A stretch of 62,621 nucleotides of DNA, the filler included, from Asterionella formosa (lineage: Eukaryota): NCBI GenBank assembly GCA_002256025.1. It is 13 parts of 13 records of this genome, joined end to end, with 100 filler letters (N's around TTAATTAATTAA, not from the genome) between each part and the next. Parts side by side here need not be neighbours in the genome. Positions count along the whole stretch, not along the records: positions 49,165 to 50,571 come from NKIB01002585.1; 12 more parts are not named here. The stretch is one strand, 5' to 3'. The translations under genes were made by a program, and so were the position numbers. Of this stretch, positions 13,220-59,609 are shown one piece after another. The first letter of the stretch is position 1, and every line of letters starts with the position of its first letter. The notes beneath the pieces were generated by a model. That model did no database searches, had not been told where the DNA came from, and worked only from the letters and a program-made list of their open reading frames with translations.

Positions 13220-13496
13220 TGTTGGAGAAATTATTAAAGGAAAGAAAAATCCCGGCATGAAACCTATTACACATTGAGTCGAATGAATCAAAAACGAATA
13301 CGGTAACAGAGAAAACTCATAATTCGAAAACAATCTAAATCGCCAGTAAAAGCCATAATTCTACTAAAACTCTTACGAATGATTACAATCCATTACTGCA
13401 ACCCATCGTTGTTCATATCTATAGCATATTTGGTCCCTGACGTGTCCTTACAGGATAGAAGAAAGCAATAGAGGGCTTTGGGACGCAATTTCAACA
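13220..13496 (+). mobile_element. 5' LTR (277 bp) of a degenerate Copia element
   Basis: TGTTGG...TTTCAACA termini. Homologous over its length to the reverse complement of the 3' LTR at 56998-57263. Confidence 0.85.
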
Positions 13497-16400
13497 GTTT
13501 TAATAGAATTAGCTGGCCAGGAAGAGCCGTGATATCACAATCAACAACAGGTGGACCATGGAGAGTCCAGAGACAAGATTTGAGGGTGCCAGACCATCCA
13601 GAGTCTGAATAAGTCACACAAGGCGCATAATGGGCTGAGTGGCAAAGGAAAGTTTACCAAGAGGGCTCAGGCCAAGGGCAAGTTTCAAACCAAGGGAGGA
13701 TGCAATAGTGCTTCTCACACCATCAAGAAGTCAGTTATTGACTATAACTACTACCTTGGATCAGCAAAGCATGCATCTGATTATGAGACTACTACTGAGT
13801 ACCTCATCAGCTACATCATGAAAGCTTTCGACTATGTCAATGACATAGGGACCGCGCTCAAGTTATTAGAACCAATTAACAGATCAGCATGGAAGCCAAG
13901 AATGCAAGTGAGCATTGCAACAACAGATGAAGATTGCACTGCAGAGAATCGGCAATATGAGATTGAGTTTAAAGCTGATTATGAATCCTACAGTAAATGA
14001 GTACAGGCCTACAAAAATAATAACACCAAGGCATATGCGTTGCTCTGGGAAAGATGCAACAAAGCCATGAAGAACAAGATCAAAGCGAGATCCGAAGTTG
14101 AAACAGACGAGTCAAATGAATCTTGCTTGTGTCTCCAAATTAGTCCAGTCATGACCTTTTTGGGTCTAGTCATGAACATGAATCAATCTTTACTCATAAA
14201 TGAATCAATCTTTTAGTCTTGTCGTGAACATGAGTCGATTTACTCATATATGACTTAGTTTTGTTTGTTTGGTTTGCTAAAAGTTAATTTTATAAGCTCA
14301 CTTTCTTTGGAAATACAAATAGAGTCAGATCTATCCTATAACATACTCCTAGATTCACCGTGATCCTTCGATCCACTGCCTAGCACCTGCGTTGCTGAGT
14401 ATATATATCGAGATATGTATACTATTCTTCAATAAGTCAAACCCCTTTCAGGTTAATCTATGACTTCTCTTTCAAGTTCCGATTACAAAAGGATCAACAA
14501 CAACCCAATGGCATTGCTTATGGCAATTAAAGAGAACACACATTAAATTTTCGAGAGAGTCGATATTCAATCATTTTAGATGCAATGAGAACGCTTTTAA
14601 AAACAAAGCAAAAAGAAGGAGAAAGTCTACAAGACTACACCAAGAGATTTCGTGTTGCACCAGATGCGCTCAAGTCACACATTGGAGGACCCATTATCCT
14701 CACCAAGTTCATTGAAGCCATGGATGGGTACAACAAGACAGACATCAAGCTGCGAGATAAATTCGCAAACAAGCTTCAGTCAATTTATGGCCTATTTATA
14801 CCTCGATAACGCAGATAAAGCAAAAATGGATCAATTATGACCGCGCTGAACATTCAACAGTCACTTGGCAACGATCAATACCCGAATAGTATTACCAAAT
14901 CAAATAATGTTCTCAGTAACCATAGGTTCAATGTAACAAATAAACCCAACAACCACAAGAAACCAGGAGATCATAATAAAGACAGGGACGAACAAAAGGA
15001 TGCAGGGAATGAAGATGAAGATGTGAACTTATCATTCACATAGTTAGAAGGAAAATGTTACTGCTGTGGAAGAGCTGGACATAAATCACCATCATGTCGC
15101 GATAATGATAAACCCAAAGAGGAATGGGCAATCAACAAGGCCCAACAAAGCCATGAACAGGCACAGGCTACTACTATATCAGACACAAGTACGGTTACCT
15201 CTGTTCTTACTTCCAACAACCCACCGTCATCACAAGCTTCAAAACTAGCAAATGTCAATCAATTTGGATGGGCGGGAGCTCATATCAAACTAAAATTTTA
15301 CCAATCATCTGTGATGCCTGACTGGATACTATTGGATAGTCAATCAAGTGTCACAGTCTTTTGCAATCCAATAATAGTTGAAATCATTCAAATGTCAACC
15401 AATGGAAGTATACACCTGGCCACAAATGGTGGATCCAGGGTCACTATTATGAGGGCTGATCTTCCACAATGGGGAGCAGTATGGTCTAATGATAAGGCAA
15501 TCACCAACATCTTCAGTTATGCCGAAATGGCAGATAGCTATAGGATTACCTACAACTCTGAGAAAGAAGGTGCATTTATTGTTCATTTGCCTGACAAACA
15601 AGTTCGATTGGAATGAATTGGGATGAATCTTTATGTTTTCAAGCCTCCTACAACTATTAAGGCTGAGAATGCTCTAATGTTTAATACAGTTGAAGAAAAC
15701 AAAAAATTCTACACTGAACGTGAACTTGAGAGAGCCAAGCAAGCCTGTGATCTATTTCATGCCCTGGACACACCATCAATTAACGATTTCAAGGCAAGAA
15801 TTTGTATGAATACGATCAACAATAATCCAGTGACTACCGATGATATCAAGATTGCCAAGAAAATTTTCGGACCTGATGTCGGAACACTAAAAGGCAAGAC
15901 AACTTGTCGCAAGCCTCTGCCAGTTGTGAACCACTACATCGAGATTCCTAAAGAGCTTATCAAAGCTCAACGCGAAGTGATTCTTTGCATGGATGGAATG
16001 AAAGTGAATGGACAATCATTTCTCACAAAAATTTCTTGAAACATTATGTATAGGACAGCGCAATGGGCGGGTCAAGAATCAGACAGCAAATGTCTATCGA
16101 GATGTTTTGACTCAGGTATTCCGTGTTTTCAATACTGGAGGATTTAAAATTGCAACAATCCACTGTGACAACAAGTTTTGACCATTGATGGAACATCTTT
16201 CCAATGAATTTCAAGTCACTATGAACTATGCAAACCCACAAGAAGATGTTCCTGAAGCGGAGCGAAATAATCGAGTGATTAAAGAACGTGGGCGCGCAGC
16301 TTATCATCGATTACTTTTCAAACATTTGCCATGACCAATGATTAAGATTCTAGTCACAGAATCTGCAAAGAAATTGAATTTCTTTCCAGCAAAGAACGGG

Positions 16401-24450: not shown

Positions 24451-24775
24451 TACGCAAGAACACGTTCTCGTAGTACAAACAAGGTGACATTGGTATCTAC
24501 AGGAAGGTCAGGTACCGCACGTTTTCTGCGCACCACCTTTACAGTTACAATTCACTCCCAATGATTTGTCCCATGCCTGCGGACGAGATAGGCTAGCTTT
24601 CGATGAAAATAATATTCCTTAAGTAATTTAGGATACGTTACTCTTATTGACTGATGAAGATTTGCAGAGTCAAATTCTGAACACGACACGGATTTGCTGC
24701 CTGATCAAACTGCTCAGCAAACCGTCCTCTTCTTGCTTCGAAATACAAATACGAAAGTTTTTTACGTTTAGCACT

Positions 24776-26620
24776 CGCTGACTACGAATGGAACTTGCTG
24801 ACTAGGACTAGAATTTGCTGATTACGACGAGAATTTGCTGACAAAGACAGAACATGAGGGCAGTAGATTTTCTCAATGACCCTTTTTCAAATGACGTACC
24901 AGGTACTGGTATGTACAATATTTCCCCTCATCATAGCCATGCTACAGTAGGACTATTATGAACATCCGTTACGTTACCGGCATGTCTACCGGTATATACC
25001 AGTACCAGTACTGGTAGTCACAGTCATTATCACGCCTGATGCAACAGCGTATGAATACAAGGTACCAGCATATTTGCAAATAATCATACATATCACATTT
25101 ACTATGGTTAATAAATACTAGGATATATGCTCAGGGTACCCGAGGAAGCCCTTGTAGACGATAGCATATAATTATTTAGCTTAGATGTTGCGATTTGTTT
25201 TTAAATATAAATCGCTAGAGTGTAGGAGTAGTTCTTGTGAGTGGCTGGAAGGTCCTGTAATCAGCGCACATAGCGTGCAGGTTGCTCGTTTTCTGTTCAT
25301 CGATTCACGTACGAGAAAAAGGAAGGGGTATACCCCAAAAATTGTCGAACCCCTAAATTTTGCGCAACTCCGATATAGACGTTAAGCCATTACTCGTTTT
25401 AATGTCAAAATGAACTTTAAGTCAGCAGTCAGCAATTTTTTCAATTTTTCAGCGAATCAAGTCAGCAGTCAGTAGTTAGCAAGTTAAAGTCAGCATTTTT
25501 ACGATAGTACCCGTACATGGTAGTAGCAATATCACGAAGTAGATAGCAATGAATTTTTTCAGGCATCAATGTCAATTACACAGTTTATTATCATGTACGG
25601 AGTACCAGGTACCAGATACCAGGTACCAGGTACGTCTATGTTACTCCCGATAGTATAGTACAAAAGTAGAAGGCATCGCTTTTAGTAGTATCCCAACAAC
25701 AAAAAGATAATGCGTTTCCATCGTTATTCTAATATGAAAAGTAGACACGATTTGTATACCGGTAACGGTAGTTGGTCTTTTCCTATGTTGAAGTTGGCAG
25801 TCAGCAAACGAAGTCAGCAGTCAGCGAATATTTCAAATTTTCAGCAAATCCAGTCAGCAGTTAGCAACAAGAAGTCCGCAGTCAGCAAGTTTAAGTTGGT
25901 AGTCAGCGATTCTGCGGTGAAAGGTGCCAGTGCTATTCCGTTTGAAAGTTTGCAACGGTTACAGGTAATCTAAATAAATTGAAATAAATTGAGATTTTCA
26001 TCATTTTGGAATTGGTGAGCCAGACAGACATCCAATGAAGTAGGTTGAAACCGCTACATGGAATTTTTAGTATATAGTGCGCGCAATTCGCTGATTACCG
26101 GATCTTCCTGGAGAATCTTGCATGATGCCGTCTCCGCCTTGAACATGACGAAATGACGAAAATAGCGGGGGAAATGAAACGACACTATGCTATTTGGTAA
26201 ATATATCTCATACAACATTGATAATACAATAGTAAAAAATAATTGTAGTAACACTAATATTGAGAACGGAAATTGAAGTTGCCGATCATGGCGCATTTCT
26301 TTACGTAGCTTAGGCGATGCACAATTTTAAAAAAAGAAGCTGTGACGGCCGAGATTTAACATTTTCACAGCATGCACCAACATACTACACTATGGAAATC
26401 GTTAGGGCGAACCAAATTTTGTTTGATTCTCTATTTAGCGATATCAATTTAAAGTCCATTGATATTTTCAAAATGACTCGTTTGTTTACGAGAACTGATC
26501 CAGCTGATGACTGCAATGACTAGAAATTTGCCGACAACGGCTAGAATTTGCTGACTATGAATAGAACTTGCTGACTACGAATAGAATTTGCTGACTTGGA
26601 ATAGAATATGCTGACAACAA
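24776..26620. repeat. Arrays of a GCTGAC/GTCAGC motif in opposing orientations (probable transposon subterminal repeats)
   Basis: About 20-bp-period TAGAA(T/C)TTGCTGAC units at 24776-24850 (about 4) and 26521-26620 (5). Inverted GTCAGC clusters at 25420-25495 and 25797-25910. Confidence 0.7.
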
Positions 26621-28484
26621 GGAATAAAAGTTACTGAGCTATTTGTGAACTCTATAACCAAACCGACTTCCAGTTCCTGAATACTATTACATGTCGAAGT
26701 AGTTGAACACGATTTCGATGATCAGAAGACGACTTGGATTTAGTGAATGATAATTTAACGGCATAGAAAGTTCCTTATAAGAGTTTGGAATGGAAAGCCA
26801 GCCTAACCCTTCCGGTAGGCATGGGTCAAATTATTGGGAGTGAATCGAAACTGAAAAAGTGGGCATAAAACGTGCACTAGTACCGGACCATCCAGTTGAT
26901 ACAGGGTACGTCATCTATACTACATATACTAGGTGATAAATAAATATTTGGCCATTAGGAAATGAAATTGCCTTTTAATTATTAGCAAAATACTAAAGTG
27001 ATATCTTACTACTTTTACTAAGTTTTTGATAACAGTTATTACTCCCATTCAACATCTTCGTCGTCAACCATGATCTGATAGTTACCGCAATGTCGTAAAT
27101 TATCGTTCTCAGTAGGCACAATATCTTGAGGAACATTATCTCCACCAAATGTTTTCAGTTGCTCTTCTGAGATTGAAGGGAATGAAAAATATGTGTTTGG
27201 AGAGCTGCTTGCAGTATTTTAAGTTACTAATCCACTAGGGTTCCTTCCAGCCACAGATCGATTATTTTGTGCGATTTCAACACACAATTGCTGATAATAT
27301 TTCAAAAAAGTCATCAGTCCATTGATCGATTAGACCTTTTGAAACTGAACTTTCCTATCTAACATTGTTCTTGGAAAGTGCTTTTCTACCGATATCGACA
27401 ACATCCTGCCAATACTGAGGTAGTTGTGCCTGTGATAGATGACAGGAAGGATTTTAATTAATCCACTATCATTGCGATAGTTACTTTTTTTTTAATACAA
27501 GGAAACAATGCTTCTGTCGAAGAATTAATAACTGAACCGACAAACCGTGATTATAATTCACATTTGGCTCGATCACTTAGAATGAATTTAGTTTCCCAAA
27601 CGTTTTCTCATATAAGATATGGATAGCCACGACGGACCCTGCCTATAAAATGAACTCGAGCTAGAACATCAATCTAGTGGTGATAGCCATTGCTTGCCCT
27701 TTCAATGAAACTTGTTTGAGCAAATGCGTACAATTTTCATTCCCAATCATCAATCTTCGAGGGACCAAGCTTGTTGAAGTAATCTTCTGTAACACCAACT
27801 AAGACGGGAAAATTGTTAGAAAATTGAATGGGAAGAAAATAAATGTTTTAACTGCAGAAAAAAAAATTGACTTACTTAAAATCGATTTAAACAGATTGTT
27901 GAATTTTGCCGTTCTCACATTTTATTAATGCACATACCTCCAAATGTAGAGTTGATATATTCTAAAATTGCTTTGTTTGGCTGTTCGTTCCAATCTATAA
28001 CTATCCAGAAGTTATGCATCACCTTCATTCCATATTAATTTGAAAGTTTAGGATCGCTTTCTGCTTCTTTGCCTACTCCCGGTTATTTCAACTCAATGCC
28101 ACCAGAGGTGTGGTACTAGACTACTATGCTCTATTGTCGATGGATGATATTGACTAAATCAAAAAATACAGGGTTGAGAACAATGTTTTTGTCAGGTAGT
28201 TACAAGGTTCTATTCAAACGGAGCACTAGGATATTGGTAGTGCATTGCTTACATACAAGGGTAGCAAGCCTGGTCCCTGCCTGGTACCAGGGTATCGGCG
28301 ATGCTCAAGGAGAAAACGATTCTCAACTTCTTTCAAAAGGGTATCATAATGATATATTAGATTAATTAAGAAAAATTATGTCTCAATAATAATTGATACC
28401 GCTAACTATTTCCGTCTTTCTAAAGTAGTATTTGATAAATATCTGTCCAATTAATCAGAAACCGAAAGTTTTACCGGGCTGGAG

Positions 28485-33000: not shown

Positions 33001-34974
33001 CCCTTCTCCCTGTATACAGTACGGAAGTGATAACCTCCAAGCTACCAAATTTTTTGTCTTGTAAGAATTATTGCAGCATGCATGCATACATGACTCCTAC
33101 TGGTATATACAGTACCAGACTACCAATCCTATAGGTCTTGTAGAAGTATCGCAACATGGCTGCATATCTAATGAAAGGGAGGAGGCGGGAGTAGTCATCT
33201 ATGCACCTGTATATGAAATATGGAAATGATTAAATATAGTCTACAAAAGTAGCAGTGCATCATATATGCCCTGTTATTTTAATTTCTATTCTGTGCTTTT
33301 TCGCCACAATTGTTTTCATTGTTTCACTGGACGCCATTCGAAATGATTGTGCTTCGAACGAAGCAATGATCAAAGTCCACCCCATTCCAGATTTGTGAGT
33401 CTCAAAACACCTATGTATCAGCCAGGCGATTTAAATGGGACTTTTTTTGTGCATCCTTGTTGTGTTTTTACATTGACTTGGCAACTTTCAGCCAAGAGCA
33501 GCCATGGCATGCCATCATTTATTGTCTGTACGAATTTTCGAATGCATTCAGCTTTGATAACTTTTGCTCCCCTCCTAAATACTATCTCACCAACCTTGTC
33601 ATAGATTTTTCTTTATCATTTGGCTGCACAGGCCCAGGTTACTCAATGCCTTCATCTGCAAGTTCAGCCAAGCACGTTGGCGTCAAGAAAACCTCAACCC
33701 CGATGTTTAGCTATGATTGAGGTTGTAACACTGATCGATGCTCCAGTGACAGACTGGCCGGGAATATTCGTCTTGTGTGATGAGGCATTTCGTTTTCATT
33801 GGATTTCTTTTCAAGCTCTTAACGGATTGCATACGAACATACTGTGCACTGTAGATGATGATTCATCGAAGACATACTATGATGACTTGAACGACAAATG
33901 AAACTCTCGTTCCTCTCGACATGTCTGCTTTGTCATTGTTGCAAGAATCAGAGTGAGGACAGGAGAGGATGATGAGCCAAACCACATTTTTACTTTAACT
34001 GTTTCATTATCCTACCAAAAATTTAAATAAAGGAACCTAAAAGAAACAATACAAATAATAATTAAATTTCCATAGTCAAAAGGGTTACTATTTAAATTAC
34101 GAGGGCATTTATCAAAATTATTAGATGATATAAAGAAAAAATGTGATCAGATGATCATTATCCTATGATGCATCATAGGAATATGATGGTATTTATTTGC
34201 AGACGTACTTCTAGAAAGTATACAAACAAACATATAACATGCACCATTCGATTTGGAATAAATTTTTAATATGAGGCTGTTAGCTGGAGAATTATCGGAG
34301 CTTGCACTTCATGTGAGGCAGTTTCCTATGAGAAGTTTGGTGGCAACTACTGGTATTGTTGTTTGGTGATCATGGTGAAGCAACAATATTTATTTGCACT
34401 GCATAGTAATACTGTAGTAATACTAAGTATATACTGTAGTGTCAAAATGCCGTTAAGGTTCCTGCATTTCAAGCCTAAGGCAAAAATTAAAATATTGCTT
34501 AGGGTTGCCAAAACTCCCTGGAACCAAGAATTTATATGAGCTATTTTTGAATGACATGATTCCATTTGAAATATTTAAATCAGTGGAAATTTGCGCATAC
34601 ATACATACATACATAGATTCCTTTCCAAACTCGCTAAATTTATTTATAGACATTCTCCATTGCTAAATGTAGCTATATATGCCAACAATTATGTTTCTTA
34701 TATAGCTGACCTATACTTATGGTACCTGGTACCGGTACCATTTACCAGGTACTTTGATCAATGACTCTATCTAAGTACTAAGGGTTGTTCTTATAATTCC
34801 GAATTTGCTGTATCATTTCTGGGTTGTGGGCAAAAAGTGATGGTTGGTATCAAAACACGGTATCAGCAATGGTAACTTGATGGCCTTTTTTGCCCCCTCC
34901 GAAAACGGTATCAGTGATACTGACGTTTTCACGCAGGTATCATTTCCGTTGTCATTAATAAAATAACAATGCCC

Positions 34975-37900
34975 CGTAAGCGCATATAAGGGAGATTTTG
35001 TTGGGGAGTTATCAATTCCCAAGGAACCATTACGCCTGGGAGGGATTGCTTCAGGCCTTGCTGTAGAAGGCATAGGCACTGTCCACTGGACTTTTCTATC
35101 TGACGATGGACGTTTGTTGCACCTGCATCTGAATGCATACTATGTTCCTCAGTGTACACAGAGTCTTCTATCACCCCAACAAATATTCTCGAAAGAACAA
35201 GGTTTTACCGGTCAGTTTGTCATACTGGATGACTATGCCCAGCTACTGATAGATGGTAAACCACCATTAACTATTTACTATGACCCAGTCAATGACTTGC
35301 CAACAAGTCGAGCAATTCGTTCTGCTACTGCAGGCCAACGAGAGGAGTTCCTATATCTATGCATCACCGAAGACCGCAATCAGAATTTAACAGAAGCACA
35401 GAAGGAGTATCTGCGTTGGCACTACAAACTGGGACATTTGGGCTCTGCTAGTACAATACAGTGGTTATTACGACAACCGTCATTTGGTAACAATCTCAAG
35501 AGTCGAAAAGGCTGCCCGTTGCACTGCACCTAAGTGTGCAGCATGTGAGTACGGTAAGGCCCATAGAAAACCTTTAAAAGCCGCAATCAGCATTCCTTCG
35601 CCTGAGAGGGAGGGAAATGTAAATTCTGGTGATCTATATCCAGGCTCAGGAGTGTCTGTGGACCATTTTGAATCCCGTGTCCTCGGACGACAATATTCTT
35701 CGCGAGGAAAATCACAAGATTCTTGCATGTATAAAGGGGGCTGTATTTTGGTGGATCACGCATCAGGCCTTCTTTATGTCCACCATTAGGTGGGATTTCC
35801 GGCAACCGAAACACTCACTGGAAAGCAGCAATTCGAGAATTGGGCTTACAATCACGGTGTTCTTGTTGCATTCTATATGACTGATAACGGAACATTCGGC
35901 ACTAAGGAGTTTGTTGACGCAATTATTGCACGAGGACAACAAGTTAAATACTGTGGAGTTGGTGCACACCACCAGAACGGTGTTGCTGAAAGAAGCATAC
36001 GCACTGTATCCAATATGGCACGAGTCATGATGCTACATGCATCTATAAGATGGCCTGAAACTGCTGATGCGCGCGACCCTATGGCCTATGGCAGTTGATT
36101 ATGCTGCGCATGTCTATAACCATGTCCCAGGCATACGAACAGGTCATTCACCAATGGATATATTTACTGGGTCTCTAGTACTACCCAAGCATGGTCTTAA
36201 GGATTTACATGTGTGGGGCTGTCCATCCTAGTATGTATTAGATCCAAAGATGCAAAATGGCATGAAACTGCCCAGATGGGAACCAAGATCTCGGTGTGCT
36301 CTGTTTGTGGGAATGTCCCCTAATCACAGTACCAACGTGCCCCTGGTACTAAACTTGAAGACTGGAAGTATATCACCTCAATTTCATGTGGTGTTCGATG
36401 ACTTCTTTTCTACAGTGATGTCCATTCCAGCCAGAGGGAGATGACCCCGCAGCACACTGGGAGAATATTTTCAACGAATCACGCTTTCAGGCGTATTTTG
36501 ATGAACATGATTTGCCTACCTTACAGGAGGAATGGACCGAAAACAATGATGCCTACCTAGACAAGAAACGTCATATGGAGGCTAAGGTGTTACCCACCAT
36601 GGGTCTACACAGAGATGAGACGCCGTCTTATCTTCAGAGGCAGGGAGTTACCAATGCAGGTGACTATGACACAAGAAAGAGGGACACCATTGTCTCCTGG
36701 TGTTGCTGTACTTTCGCCCATTGAAATACAGAGTGTACCAGCACGGATTTATGCAGTGGATGCTAACAAGTGGCTGCATAGGCTACCACCCACTAGATTG
36801 GTACAAGAATCGGTAGTGACCATTCCACCAGGAACAGTAGTGTCATGGGAACCACAAGAGAACATTCCGCAAGGAACAGGAGTGGAGCAAGAACACTTGG
36901 AGATGCTGTCCCAAATGTCTCCTCGCCCACCACAGAGGCGTAGCATCAGAACAAACAGAGTACCGCAACGCTTTACTCCTGGTCTACGTGGGCAAGACGG
37001 TTATCTTGCAGGGTCATTTCTATCTAGTCCAAGTGAGCAGTATCATAGTAGCCTGAGCCAATCAGAATCAGTCCTCGCCTATTTGTCATCTTTAATGACC
37101 GACCCAATAACTGGATATTTGGAATGTACTAACCCACTTGCTTTCGCTGCGATGACTAAACGATCCGACCCAGACTCGCCAAGATATCACGAAGCAATGG
37201 CAAGCATTGATTCTGAATTATTTAAGGAAGCGATGGTAGCAGAAATAAATGCTCTTACGGCAAAGAATACATGGACTGTAATACCACGGGCATCCATTTC
37301 TGGCAAAAATTTTCTACCAGGAGCATGGGCATTTAAGAGGAAGAGATTTCCTGACGGTCGTCTTCGAAAGTGTAAAGCACGGTTTTGTGTCCATGGTGAT
37401 AAGCAAGTCGAAGGCGTTGACTACTTCAAAATGTATGCACCAGTGATACAATGGTCTACAGTGAGATGCTTACTCATAATGTCGATTGTGTTGGACCTAA
37501 AGACACAATAAATCGACTATAGTAATGCATTCTGTCAAGCAGAAATTGAAGAAGAAGTCTACGTGGAGTTACCTAAAGACTTTGGTGACAAGCAAGGGCG
37601 CGATATGGTTCTTAAACTAAATAAGTCGCTCTATGGTACAAAACAGGCTCCACGGGCTTAGTTCTTGAAACTTAAAGAAAGTCTGGAAGATCGCGGTTTC
37701 CACCAATCTAAATTGGATCCATGTTTCTTTATTCACCCAGATAGTATGGTGTACCTAAACTATGTAGATGATGGGATACTAATTGAAAAAAATTGTTTCC
37801 AAGATTGAATCCATGATTGATGATCTCAGTACAACACTTGAGCTAACAAGAGAAGGAGACCTTTCGGCTTTCTTAGGAATACAAATTGATAAGATCATTG

Positions 37901-38767
37901 AGAATGGTTCTTTAAGGCTGACACAGGAAGGCTTAATCAAGCGAGTGTTAGAAGCTACTAAAATGCAAGAATGCAGACCCACAATGACACCAGCTGTCAA
38001 GGATACATTGGGTGCAGATGTTGATGGAAAACCAGCAGCAGCAGAAGAACAATGGAACTATAGGTCCGTGGTGGGAATGCTATTATACTTGGCATCAAAC
38101 TCGCGACCAGACATAGCCTTTGCAGTACATCAGTGTGCTCGTTTCTCCCATTGTCCTATGGTATCACATGAAGGGGCAATTAAGAGTATCTACCGCTATC
38201 TGAAAGGAACTATGAAAGAAGGAATTGTTTTCACACCTTCTGAGGAACTTGCAATAGATTGCTATGTAGATTCTGACTTTGCGGGTTTGTATGGTACTGA
38301 GGATTCTCATGATCCAATTTGCGCTAAGTACAGGACAGGATATGTCATAACGTTAGCAGGATGTCCGCTACTATGGGTATCAAAGCTAGCTACAGACCAC
38401 TATAGCCCTATCTACTACGGAAGCAGAATACCAGGCTTTATCAGCAAGTTGTTGGGACCTAATCCCATTACGACATATTTGCAAGGAAGCCTCGGATGCC
38501 CTGAAGATAAATGGACCTTTCATAGTACGATCACACTCGAAGATATATGAAGATAATAGTGCATGTTTGTCTCAAGCAACAATGCCCAAAATGACGCCAC
38601 GTACAAAACATATAGCAGTGGCTTATCATTGGTTTCGAGAATATGTATCGTCGGGAGACATTGAAGTCTTGAAAATTGATACTACAAAGCAACTTGCGGA
38701 CATTTTCACAAAGGGCTTGGTAGCAGAAAGATTTACAGCAATACGCAAGCTGCTGTGTGGTTGGTAA
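34975..38767 (+). mobile_element. Degenerate Ty1/Copia pol (protease C-part, GAG-pre-integrase, integrase, RT, RNase H); 5'-truncated
   Basis: YYVP...LLSPQ, WHYKLGH, VSVDHF, TDNG, HHQNGVAERSIR, WAFKRKRFPDG..KARF, LNKSLYG, YVDD, YRSVVGMLLYL, YVDSDFAG, RTKHI, QLADIFTKGL. Order PR-IN-RT-RH. Confidence 0.95.
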
Positions 38768-49064: not shown

Positions 49065-49859
49065 NNNNNNNNNNNNNNNNNNNNNNNNNNNNNNNNNNNN
49101 NNNNNNNNTTAATTAATTAANNNNNNNNNNNNNNNNNNNNNNNNNNNNNNNNNNNNNNNNNNNNAATACAACAGGCAGGTCCAATCATGATGATAGGGTC
49201 ATTTACCGCAACAATGATACGAATCCATGTTCAGTTCTTTCCATATTCCTCAATAAATCGTGAAGACATTGATGTTCAGAACTTCCCTATACTCTTTGTA
49301 TACAATTACCCTGATAGATATAAAAGGATGTGTTACTTATGTTCTAACGGGTGATTCTTGTGAGCATTGATCCAACGACAGCACTTAGCTACTGCGACAG
49401 TCATTTCTTCACATTTAATTTGTCCCCGAAAGTATGCATATACAGGTAAGCAAATAAACACTTGAAGAGAATGCACGCATTGAGCTACTGTCAACCCAAC
49501 AATTGAATTTTCTGACATATTCATGTACACACGAGTCCCAATCATATTATTTAGCTAACCATATATGTATTTATTTACTTCTATGTTTGAATATTTCAAA
49601 CACCCGTGTACAGGTACTGTCGTTCAAATAGATCTGAATATCATCAATTTTACCGATACTTAATTTTATTTTATTCAATGTTGTATGATTTTATTTGTTT
49701 TGAATTTAGTCTTTAAAAATTTCAGTAAGTGATATTAGAATATATACAATGCTTTATGAGTTAATTATTTACCACGACCTAATATAAAGTATAAATATGG
49801 GTTGTACGACAATCCGGTATGGAGTAATAGTTAATGATATAATTAAGCCCCATCATGGA

Positions 49860-50072
49860 TGTGACATGTACGTAAAAAAGGGCAAGGGTTAGAATGCGAA
49901 GTATGTGTTAATATCTGCATATGATGCTCCATACATGCGCCGTACGAACCATACCGGCGCAGCCACCAGATTAGGTACATGCGTGAGTGCTGACAACGAT
50001 GTACTTGGAACAGCAATAGAATAGTCATAATATTGTAGTTCACCTTTATTCACGATAAGGTTCCCCTCAACA
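49860..50072 (+). mobile_element. Probable 5' LTR of a CoDi-type Copia
   Basis: Ends CCCCTCAACA, 147 bp before the gag ATG. Left boundary (TGTGAC at 49860) is uncertain and set by the shift from AT-rich flank. Confidence 0.55.
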
Positions 50073-50219
50073 GAACTACAATATCTGTTCTTTCTCTCTT
50101 GTCCGCACCTGCGAAGTTGCGGGTCTTGTCGACAGTGCAAACCAGCACTGGTCTCAACAATCAACCGTCCAGCACCGCTTGCCCATTCGCTGTCCCTGTC
50201 TCTCAGGCCTTCTTCCACC

Positions 50220-50571
50220 ATGACGACTCCAATCGTTTCCGCTGTTTTCCCCTTCCCTCATCCGCTCTTGACGCCGATCGAGGGCAAACCTACAGCCTTC
50301 ACTGTAACCCGCCTTCGCAAGGAACTCTTTGCCAACGCTCGCTCTGTCCACTGTACCAGTGGTGGTGGTGCCAATGGTTTCCTTGGTATTGTCATGGCTG
50401 CTGCTCCTTATCTCTTACGTGCCGGTGAACCCTTTGTACCGCCCGAACATCCCGGCATCCAGCCGACACACAGTGCTACTGCAACACAGTCCCAAATCAC
50501 TGCTGCCAACCGTCTCTTTGACACCTCCCTTGACGCATTCCGCCGTTACTCCCAAATCCGTGAAATTCTCC
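50220..50571 (+). mobile_element. CoDi-type Copia gag N-terminus (intact frame, cut by the contig edge)
   Basis: FPHPLLTPIEGKP...ELFANARSV...GGGANGFLGIV...PFVPPEHPG is characteristic of diatom CoDi gag proteins. Confidence 0.75.
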
Positions 50572-52178: not shown

Positions 52179-52996
52179 ATGACTACACGACTATATTTGG
52201 AAAGGAACCAAAGAAAGCCTCAACGCCGGGATTCCCGGGAACGGTCCTAAGTAAGAACCGAGGAGAGACGATCAAGAATATGGAATATCGCTCCCTCGTT
52301 GGAAAGATACTTTACTTCGTGAAGAAAATATCGCCAGTATGCGCCAACGCATGTCGTGAATTGTCACAGCACCTCGACAACCCAGGCGAAACGCACTGGC
52401 AAGCATTGGAACGCCTACTCGGGTATTTGTGTCTACATGGGGACATTGCATGCAGAATGAAACTGCGTGCGCCCAACGAGCTACGTATTCAAGATGTCGT
52501 GGATAGCGCCTTCGCCTCTAATCCTGATACACGAAAAAGTGTCAGCGGTTATTTAGGCACGATCGGAGGGTGCGCCCTAATTCACTGGATATCAAAAGGA
52601 CAGGATATCGTAACGCAATCAAGCACCGAGTGTGAATATGTCGCACTCAGTAACGGCTCAAAGGAAACTGTCTTCGCAACGAATCTACTGGGCGAAATTA
52701 CCACAATCGCGATGCCTAGTCTAATGGGTGAGGACAATACCGGTGCGATTTATTTAACGAAAAATCATCAGGTCGGGGCACGTACAAAACACATCGACGT
52801 TAGATACCACTATGTACGAGAACAAGTCGAAAACGGAACGATTAAGGTTGACTACGTCAATACGGAAAAGAATCCAGCAGATGTTCTAACTAAAAATGTC
52901 ACGGACAAGATTATGAACATGCACGGATATGCGATCCAAAACGGGATGATGGATTGTTGGAACAAGGAGAGTGTTAAAGTGAGCTCATCTACGTAG
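52179..52996 (+). mobile_element. Copia RT C-terminus and RNase H (intact frame, stop inside the LTR)
   Basis: YRSLVGKILY, VDSAFAS, RKSVSGY, SSTECEYVAL, EDNTGAI, RTKHIDVRYHYVRE, NPADVLTK. PPT GGAACAAGGAGAG at 52959-52971. Confidence 0.95.
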
Positions 52997-57285: not shown

Positions 57286-58103
57286 TCACTTTGAATTCAT
57301 AATTTCCTGACGAAAATGAATAAATTTCATTCCAACCAGTGGTTTCGTCATGTAGTCTGCTAACATTGCATCCGATGGACAGTACTTGATTTGTACTTCC
57401 TTTCTTTCAATAAGATCAGTAATATAAAAATATTTGATGTTGAAATGTCGCGTGCGTTTTCCTGAACTTGCTTTTCCATTCGCTTCTAGCTTCATTGCGC
57501 TAGTGTTGTCACGGTAAATGACATTCGTAGTCACCTTGTGTCCTTGTGCTTCAATAAATAATTTCGTCCACAACACCTTTGATATGATGTCATCGACACC
57601 AACCAACTCAGCTTCAGTCGAGCTTCTAGTGTTCACTTTCTGTTTCGTGGACATAGAACAAATAATTCCGTTTCCAAGTGACATTGTAGCTCCTGTGTGA
57701 CTTTTAAAATCTTTGTGCACTGCAAACGCCGCATCAACGTACCATTTAATGCTCTGAGTGTCATCAGCACTCATAGATGCAACCTCGTTCTGAGTTGCTT
57801 TCAAGAAATTCATGATCTTGACTAATTTTACCCAATCACCTTCATTCGGTTCGATAGTTCGGGTTGCCAGAAATGCAATTCCTGGTTGAATGTCCTGTCT
57901 TCCTCGCTTACATAGGAACATTCCTTTCATAACAAAAGTATGAAATATTTTTGCTTTTTCATATTCAAGCTTCTTTGATTTTGTATCAACTGTGAACAGT
58001 TTATCTGTCCATGGGAATTTTCCAACACCTTCAAGTTTCACTGGAAAATCATCAATCATTGATTTCACATATTTGGTCATGTCCACCCTCAACACTCCTG
58101 GAA
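57286..58103 (-). mobile_element. Copia RT C-terminus and RNase H (intact frame)
   Basis: KRGRQDIQ, WYVDAAFAVH, SHTGA, SSTEAELV, RDNTSAM, RTRHFNIKYFYITD, ADYMTKPL. Confidence 0.95.
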
Positions 58104-58203
58104 NNNNNNNNNNNNNNNNNNNNNNNNNNNNNNNNNNNNNNNNNNNNTTAATTAATTAANNNNNNNNNNNNNNNNNNNNNNNNNNNNNNNNNNNNNNNNN
58201 NNN

Positions 58204-59609
58204 CATTAATTGATGGTGTACCCAAGGCATGAAATAGATCACGAGCTCGCTTAGCTCTCTGAAATTGACGTTCAGTGTAAAATGTTTTGTTTTCTTCAAG
58301 TGTATTTAACATTTGAGCATTCTCCGCTCTAATTCTTGTAGTTGGCTTGAAAACATATAAGTTCATCCCAATTCTTTCAAATCGAACTGTTTTGTCAGGC
58401 AAATGAACAATGAATGCATCTTCTTTCTCAGAGTCATAGGTAATTCTGTACCTATCTGCCATTTCGGCATAACTGAAGATGTTTGTGATTGCCTTTTCAT
58501 TAAACCATACTTCTCCCCATTCTGGAAGATCAGCCTTCATATTAGTTACCATGGATCCACCATTTGTGGCCAGGTGCATTCTTCCATTGGTTGACATTCG
58601 AATGTTATTAACCATTTTTGGATTGCAAAAGACTGTGACACTTGATTGATTATCCAATAGTATCCAGTCAGGCATCTCAGATGCTTGGTAAAATTGTAGT
58701 TTCATATGAGCTCCCGTCCATCCAAATTGATTGGCATTTGCTTGCTGTGAAGCTTGTGATGACGGCGGGTTGTTGGAATTAACAGAGGTAACTGTACTCG
58801 TGTCGGATGTATTATTAGCCTGTGCCTGTGCATGGCTTTGAGCCTTGTTGATAGCCCATTCCTCTTTGGGTTTATTCTTGTCTTGGCACGAAGGGGATTT
58901 GTGACCTGCTTTTCCGCAGCAGTAACATTTTCCTTCTAACTGTGCAAACGATAAGTTCACGTCTTCGTCTTCCCTGCCTGCATCCTTCTGTTTCCTCTCT
59001 TTATCATTATCTCCTGTTTTCTTGTAGACAGATTTATTTGTTACGTCAAACCGATGGTTGCTGAGAACATTATTTGATTCGGTGATGGTCTTTGGGTATT
59101 GATCGTTGCCGAGTGATTGTTGAGTGTTCAGCCCGGTCATAATTGAACCGTATTTAGCTTTATCGGCATTATCGAGATATAAATATGCCATAAATTGACT
59201 GAAAGCTTGTTCGCGAAATTTATCTCGTTGTTTGATGTCATTCTCATTGTATCCATCCATGGCTTCAACGAACTTGGTGAGGATAATGGGTCCTCCCATG
59301 TGTGACTTGAGCACATCTCGTGCCACACGAAATCTCTTGGTGTAGTCTTGTAGACTTTCTCCTTCCTTTTGCTTCGTGAACAAAAGCGTTCTCATCGCAT
59401 CTAAAATGATCGACATTGAATATCGATTCTCTTGAAAATTTAATGCGTGTTCTTTAATTGCCATAAGCAATGTTATTGGGTTATTTTCGATCCTATTGTA
59501 ATCGGATCTCGCTTCAATCTTGTTCTTCATGGCTTTGTTGCATCTTTCCCAGAGCAACGCATATGCCTTGGTATTATTATTTTCGTAGGCCTGTACCCTT
59601 TTACTGTAG
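58204..59609 (-). mobile_element. Copia gag-protease region, intact relative of 13497-17340
   Basis: Open across the whole contig. CYCCGKAGHKSPSC knuckle and WILLDNQS protease motif. Confidence 0.95.

Follow-up and report, generated by a model that had tools for sequence, protein, structure and literature searches.

A primer-binding site complementary to its own LTR in a young Copia-type retrotransposon of Asterionella formosa suggests self-priming in diatoms

Self-priming systems and the diatom locus

In the retrotransposon Tf1, the RNA's initial 11 bases are described as pairing with the primer-binding site (PBS), after which RNase H cuts behind base 11 (PMC7175516); the PBS is described as copied into single-stranded DNA at the end of the cDNA (PMC11042837). 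A structure of three duplexes in the 5' UTR has been described for the Tf1/sushi group (PMC10085805). Self-priming was also proposed for Tj1 (PMC4600332), and it has been speculated that self-priming preceded tRNA priming (PMC3601003). Among Copia elements, it was predicted for the plant TAR lineage (Houba, Osr-1) from complementarity between LTR and PBS (PMC6317226), and GalEa elements, which have no tRNA PBS, are reported to carry a conserved inverted repeat at that position, the Conserved Hairpin Site (PMC5445492). In the main text of the paper describing the diatom CoDi elements (Maumus 2009, PMC2806351), neither tRNA nor priming nor a primer-binding site comes up.

We analyzed a locus of the diatom Asterionella formosa within a stretch of 62,621 nucleotides (the window) made of small contigs joined by N linkers; the site lies on a 1.4-kb contig of a fragmented assembly (49165-50571, G000:C2585). 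As described for Tf1 and Tf2 of Schizosaccharomyces pombe, Tj1 and Tosmo1-3, its PBS abuts the 5' LTR and pairs with a stretch inside the LTR rather than with a tRNA. Tf1/sushi elements are Ty3/gypsy chromoviruses, whereas the reverse transcriptase (RT) is here of the Copia type and the stretch behind RNase H is too short to hold an integrase or a chromodomain. Compared with the 11-base primer reported for Tf1, a helix of 12-14 nt with 0-3 unpaired 5' bases is predicted, the loop is only 31 nt long (20-50 nt in most relatives) and there is no conserved three-duplex "pretzel". Judged from its sequence, the element would work like Tf1 without being a member of the Tf1/sushi group. It shares with TAR the Copia superfamily and the LTR/PBS complementarity; TAR is a land-plant lineage, whereas the named pol relatives of this element are from diatoms. 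In GalEa, the second arm is described as lying downstream of the PBS position, with no complementary U5, whereas here the partner lies inside the LTR as in Tf1. At 5.2-5.6 kb, with a short LTR that has TG/CA ends and a single stop that separates gag from pol, the element falls within the ranges reported for the CoDi elements of Phaeodactylum and Thalassiosira (PMC2806351), and an assignment to a CoDi4-like group, based on short LTRs and on relatives without CA ends, is only a lead.

No report of self-priming in diatoms was found in a literature search whose reach left out most subscription journals. What is predicted here is a known mechanism, in a simpler architecture and in a lineage for which no report was found. 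In the literature found, Copia self-priming is a prediction only, and the present element offers a compact, strongly covarying test case. If confirmed, it would add a third eukaryotic lineage to the range of a mechanism that has been proven in a Gypsy group only, and would indicate that it can work without the Tf1 pretzel. Software that depends on a tRNA PBS to find LTR elements would overlook or misjudge such cases, and the order CATAA, arm and PBS predicts both the start site and the LTR end from a single copy.

Limits, copies and coding content of the element

The 5' LTR extends from 49906 to 50072 (plus strand, 167 bp, TGTT...AACA). Copies diverge before 49906 and after 50072, and two single contigs carry both LTRs with the same end, in elements of about 5.56 kb and 5,175 bp. 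The initial annotation had proposed TCAACA (50067-50072) as the LTR end, pending a matching 3' LTR. Such LTRs were found: in 22 of them the sequence diverges directly past 50072, and the solo-type copies and two-LTR contigs end at the same base. An LTR running to 50080 or beyond is therefore excluded. Two genome searches gave 292 and 260 candidates, 40 of which were scored in each; as 36 of the 40 scored LTR matches were 100% identical, the window's own included, the family is young. In a set of 55 loci, 31 rows (30 places, window included) run on into PBS and leader, with the exact PBS 12-mer in 29. The other 24 diverge directly past 50072; 22 of them have a purine tract that abuts the 3' LTR immediately before TGTT, and two are of the solo type, one with a 5-bp duplication. 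Among 48 distinct genome copies, divergence was 2.9% in the arm and 2.8% in the PBS, compared to 6.9% in U3 and 8.6% in the pyrimidine-rich untranslated leader (50085-50219, plus strand). In two copies (L078, G000:C238, and L079, G000:C14725), gag is not preceded by LTR and PBS; a segment that contains a perfect inverted repeat of 29-30 bp, possibly a MITE-like insertion, takes their place.

The 5-bp word GTATG at 49901-49905 (plus strand) is the left copy of a target-site duplication; the same 5-mer follows the 3' LTR of another contig (L038), from which we infer that the two contigs belong to one insertion. When the flanks of 27 5' and 23 3' junctions were compared, 10 matches of 5 nt were observed versus 0.6 expected with uniform bases (four of the ten involve the common word CCAGG), and no match of 6 nt occurred between these junctions. 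The hallmarks of an LTR retrotransposon are thus present, namely direct LTRs with TG...CA ends and a target-site duplication.

The gag frame starts at ATG 50220 and its first 117 codons (50220-50571, plus strand) reach the end of the contig. In longer copies, gag has 362 aa and is followed by an in-frame TGA and by about 1,370 codons of pol. The gag had no match in Pfam; the CoDi gag named in the initial annotation is kept as a gag from its position and the linked pol. RT regions match RVT_2 at E values of 1e-4 to 8e-4, weaker than the curated cut-off of Pfam, and homologues of pol carry PF07727 and Ty1/copia names. There is a protease-like motif at the start of pol, and RNase H ends about 90 aa before the pol stop, so that an integrase would not fit behind it. 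Protease and integrase are putative, assigned from sequence motifs and not by family match. With this predicted order (PR-IN-RT-RH), the element is by sequence a Ty1/copia element. Four diatom genera (Fragilaria, Cylindrotheca, Nitzschia and Fistulifera) account for the named pol homologues, which are 58-63% identical, and one more is labelled as bacterium; a search with host genes named no diatom. What the locus holds is the 5' end of a young Ty1/copia LTR retrotransposon of high copy number, probably from a diatom. No relative of it was present in the viral contigs searched, and a PDB search with pol returned nothing useful.

Two features of the reading frames were observed in passing. In the 3' LTR copy, the pol frame crosses the inferred U3 (49906-50024, plus strand) for its last 39 codons and ends with TAG at the position equivalent to 50022-50024, one base before TCATA; in relatives the pol stop ranges from about -140 to +12 of CATAA, so its exact position is not conserved. 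At the gag/pol junction, a conserved purine-rich word (with codons of the type x-R/G-G-E/K) comes after the in-frame stop in 25/28 loci, as counted by eye and without a control (L004:2901-2915, L206, L208 and related loci); this combination looks like a signal for stop-codon read-through.

The inverted repeat at the LTR/PBS junction

The 12 nt directly past the LTR, GAACTACAATAT at 50073-50084 (plus strand), are the exact reverse complement of ATATTGTAGTTC at 50030-50041 within it, as the initial annotation had read from the window. The PBS thus abuts the LTR without a spacer and is separated from the arm by a loop of 31 nt (50042-50072). Pairing breaks sharply on both sides, at A50042/A50072 inside and at A50029/C50085 outside. 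Dinucleotide shuffles of the LTR never contained a 12-nt complement of the post-LTR bases (0/20,000), and 2/1,000 shuffles of LTR plus leader contained a 12-nt inverted repeat anywhere. RNA from 50027 on is predicted to fold into the arm/PBS stem (z = -4.66). REXdb predicts a self-primer from a complement of at least 10 nt beginning 0-5 nt past the LTR, as described in PMC6317226; here a 12-nt complement begins at offset 0 from the 5' LTR. A local hairpin in the loop (50042-46/50057-61, plus strand) was without support across families, and as a conserved second helix it reached 58.8% pairing, with 28/500 shuffles equally high. Family folds share the central duplex only and the two flanking duplexes of a pretzel were not seen as conserved. 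Pairing between the LTR end and a CTGTT stretch 3' of the PBS is possible only in subfamilies A-C and is therefore not general.

The same junction was then compared across families. In the own genome, two-sided changes were found at two pairs in subfamily B and at one pair in subfamily C, and two distant families (gag 28-44% identical) have different arms of 12-14 nt at the same place. Several older genome copies carry mismatches between arm and PBS. In one copy (L103, G000:C537), a tandem duplication inside the loop has lengthened it to 87 nt and the 12-nt arm is still paired. A metagenome scan gave 58 loci, of which 6 were dropped for matching the gag C-terminus only and 11 for having less than 250 nt upstream; the remaining 41 contain near-duplicates (25 distinct junction 14-mers) and three members of the window's own family. 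An unguided search for perfect inverted repeats found 9 nt or more in 38/41 loci, 10 or more in 32/41 and 12 or more in 22/41, compared to 9.5%, 2.0% and none, respectively, of 1,230 shuffles; a 9-nt arm was absent from 3/41. The survey of junctions against shuffled controls that had been proposed as a check thus revealed inverted complementarity well above the controls, and the earlier argument that an identical architecture in different letters speaks against chance holds for related families.

The position of the arm is also conserved. The word CATAA, which was not used by the search, lies 16-18 nt before the 3' end of the arm in 37/41 loci, the loop is 28-35 nt long in 30/37 and the partner arm follows a word resembling an LTR end in 37 loci (CAATA in 19, CAACA in 8, CTTTA in 5, CAGCA in 3 and two others). 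Two loci of other families, one with two LTRs (L237) and one with a tandem LTR (L227), place the partner of the arm directly past the LTR end. Many relatives (L210-L259, L101-L107) seem to end their LTR in TA (CAATA, CTTTA) instead of CA, and the tandem LTR of L227 supports CAATA as an LTR end.

When 14 loci of the own genome were added to the 41, 50/55 had an arm of at least 9 nt, in 25 distinct pairs, and three of the five loci without it showed the same geometry with an internal mismatch. In these 25 pairs, 94.7% of positions pair with their own partner compared to 61.4% with swapped partners, and in none (0/25) does the helix extend 5' of the T of CAT, the predicted +1. In an alignment of 17 selected family rows, 96.6% of cells were paired and 9/12 pairs had two-sided changes, transversions included; 0/500 shuffles reached this and slid registers gave 27-38%. 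As the rows of both tests were chosen for an arm of at least 9 nt, the inner nine pairs are paired by selection, which inflates the paired share but does not account for how varied the pair types are. A gag tree (23 rows, own-genome subfamilies excluded) was set aside as a basis for counting independent changes: 5/20 of its inner branches were well supported, some rows sit on very long branches with suspected frameshifts, and the gag of one locus, L219, groups with L216/L223 while its arm and LTR end are those of L253/L255/L258, so that it looks like a recombinant or an assembly chimera. Combined, the LTR limits, the abutting PBS, its perfect pairing with the arm and the conservation of this geometry with changed letters are well supported by comparative evidence; the mechanism proposed below is a prediction from them.

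Predicted RNA start, priming model and alternatives

A diatom initiator-like motif, TCAH(+1)W, was proposed in PMC4686930. The initial annotation had started the paired segment at CATAAT within TCATA and fitted TCATA to this motif. TCATA (50025-50029, within the conserved stretch 50025-50030, plus strand) does adjoin the arm, which begins at 50030 and not at C50026. It is the only TCAHW match in the 167-nt LTR, but 1.7 matches are expected by chance and the conserved word is CATAA, so that support for a start comes from the fixed distance between CATAA and the arm and not from the motif alone. With a +1 predicted at about 50028, two 5' bases would be left unpaired, whereas in Tf1 the pairing is described as running from base 1. 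The sequence is present as assembled contigs in 14 RNA runs, and those of four runs were compared; they cover 49904-50571, and assembled contigs cannot mark the predicted start. Some pieces begin at 50044-50048; 31-letter assembly words yield such starts at the 50072 branch point, so that these are uninformative on a cut at 50042 (the word size equals the loop length by coincidence). Among the matches listed (15 of 17 RNA contig rows), none had a loose poly(A) end, and the only loose ends before 49906 were of purine-tract sequence. Four contigs from two runs of one study had loose ends that resemble flanks behind 50072-50075, which might reflect read-through termination or DNA carry-over.

It is likely that transcription starts near 50028, that the RNA folds back on itself and is cut after 50041, and that it serves as the primer of the minus strand at the LTR end; the start site, the cut and the enzyme are predicted. 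Pol II would start at the CATAA initiator, and the first ~14 nt of the RNA would pair with the PBS across the 31-nt loop. The element's RNase H, if it acts like that of Tf1, would free a 3'-OH by cutting after C50041. As the 3' C of the arm pairs with the first post-LTR base, minus-strand DNA extended by RT from this primer would begin at the last base of the LTR and copy the 31 nt of the loop, the presumed template of strong-stop DNA, before strand transfer. The retained primer would be copied back into the plus-strand PBS; changes in the arm would thereby be carried into the PBS, which would explain the two-sided changes.

Chance, a hairpin internal to the LTR or an assembly artefact can practically be set aside: the window piece is a short contig of a fragmented assembly, but the same junction occurs in 30 genome places and in independent metagenomes, the shuffle controls speak against chance and the second arm is absent from the 3' LTRs. 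This reading was rejected on the junction survey, the shuffles and the 17-row covariation. A host tRNA as primer was considered from several sides. An Rfam search of the genome scored 63 of 3,876 tRNA candidates and kept 62, and ARAGORN on 30 loci and 20 stretches gave 60 distinct tRNA genes, several isotypes being missing from the set. Among these 60 genes, the best match of a tRNA 3' end to the 147-nt leader was 5 nt; a tRNA-complementary PBS downstream, the finding that the initial annotation named as contrary to its reading, was thus not present. The longest internal match, of 10 nt, involves the 5' part of an organelle-type tRNA-Asp whose contig appears to be organellar, subfamily C has 9-nt matches to tRNA-Arg and tRNA-Ile, and half-tRNA priming is described for other Copia lineages (PMC6317226). 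It is nevertheless very unlikely that the primer is the 5' fragment of a host tRNA ending at position 13, with the LTR arm a mimic or relic: the match to the own LTR is longer (12 nt), no match of families D and E to a tRNA exceeds 6-7 nt and the PBS varies by transversions between families. A genome-wide pattern scan for tRNAs with an arm-like 5' part also gave 30 matches versus 70 for the control, and only three of the 30 were tRNA-like by eye, all apparently of the organelle type. In subfamilies A-C, the last six bases of the arm and the next A (within 50030-50042) resemble tRNA positions 8-14, probably by coincidence.

The two remaining alternatives accept the pairing and are improbable to the same degree, if less so than a tRNA fragment. 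Covariation demonstrates pairing and not priming, and fungal GalEa Copia elements without a PBS are reported to retain an unexplained conserved hairpin at this place (PMC5445492), as would be expected if the stem were structural or regulatory (packaging, dimerisation, translation control) and were displaced by an unknown RNA primer. Against such a role, the inner edge of the helix coincides exactly with the LTR end wherever that end is fixed independently, its outer edge respects the predicted +1, and the PBS differences between families could not be matched by one host RNA. A primer with the arm sequence might instead be made otherwise, from a second RNA (short or aborted transcripts, or those of 3' or solo LTRs) or by a host nuclease. 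CATAA and the arm are present in every LTR copy, there is no conserved pretzel to place a cut in cis, and priming in cis and in trans would look the same in sequence data; the narrow range of loop lengths and the stable fold-back are nevertheless as expected in cis, and the Tf1 precedent is described as a cut by RNase H (PMC7175516).

Family 1 and further elements in the window

The initial annotation had likened the locus to an unrelated family, family 1, which is found in the same window. At the putative family 1 junction (13353-13511), the arm has 15 nt with one mismatch and ends 17 nt after CATAA, the same distance as at the present locus; the loop is about 128 nt long. The family 1 gag has a CCHC knuckle and showed no similarity to the gag at 50220 (profile E 0.85; BLASTP E 7.4 with a second family 1 gag copy). 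The two families are thus unrelated at the sequence level, but both look Copia-type and may share a deep ancestry. A tentative proposal, which we regard as doubtful, is that two or more deeply separated lineages of diatom Copia, the present one and family 1 among them, use self-priming as their normal and possibly ancestral mode. Their design would be stripped down to a CATAA-anchored primer of 14-15 nt and a loop of 20-40 nt, with no pretzel, and with so short a strong-stop DNA, transcripts would have to run to the LTR end or past it. If true, a large Copia radiation would for the first time offer strong covariation evidence for the cutting of duplex RNA by an RNase H, and this would bear on whether self-priming came before tRNA priming.

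Other elements were noted in the window. In the region 57289-59608, the second family 1 gag copy (minus strand, 58205-59608) is 89% identical over 577 nt, and the next piece carries an RT and RNase H only distantly like the present pol. Two other Copia-type elements, unlike the family of 49906-50571, are represented by fragments (protease, RT, RNase H) at 34967-38550 and 52179-52996, and two arrays of a degenerate 20-nt tandem unit lie at 24744-24864 and 26517-26637.
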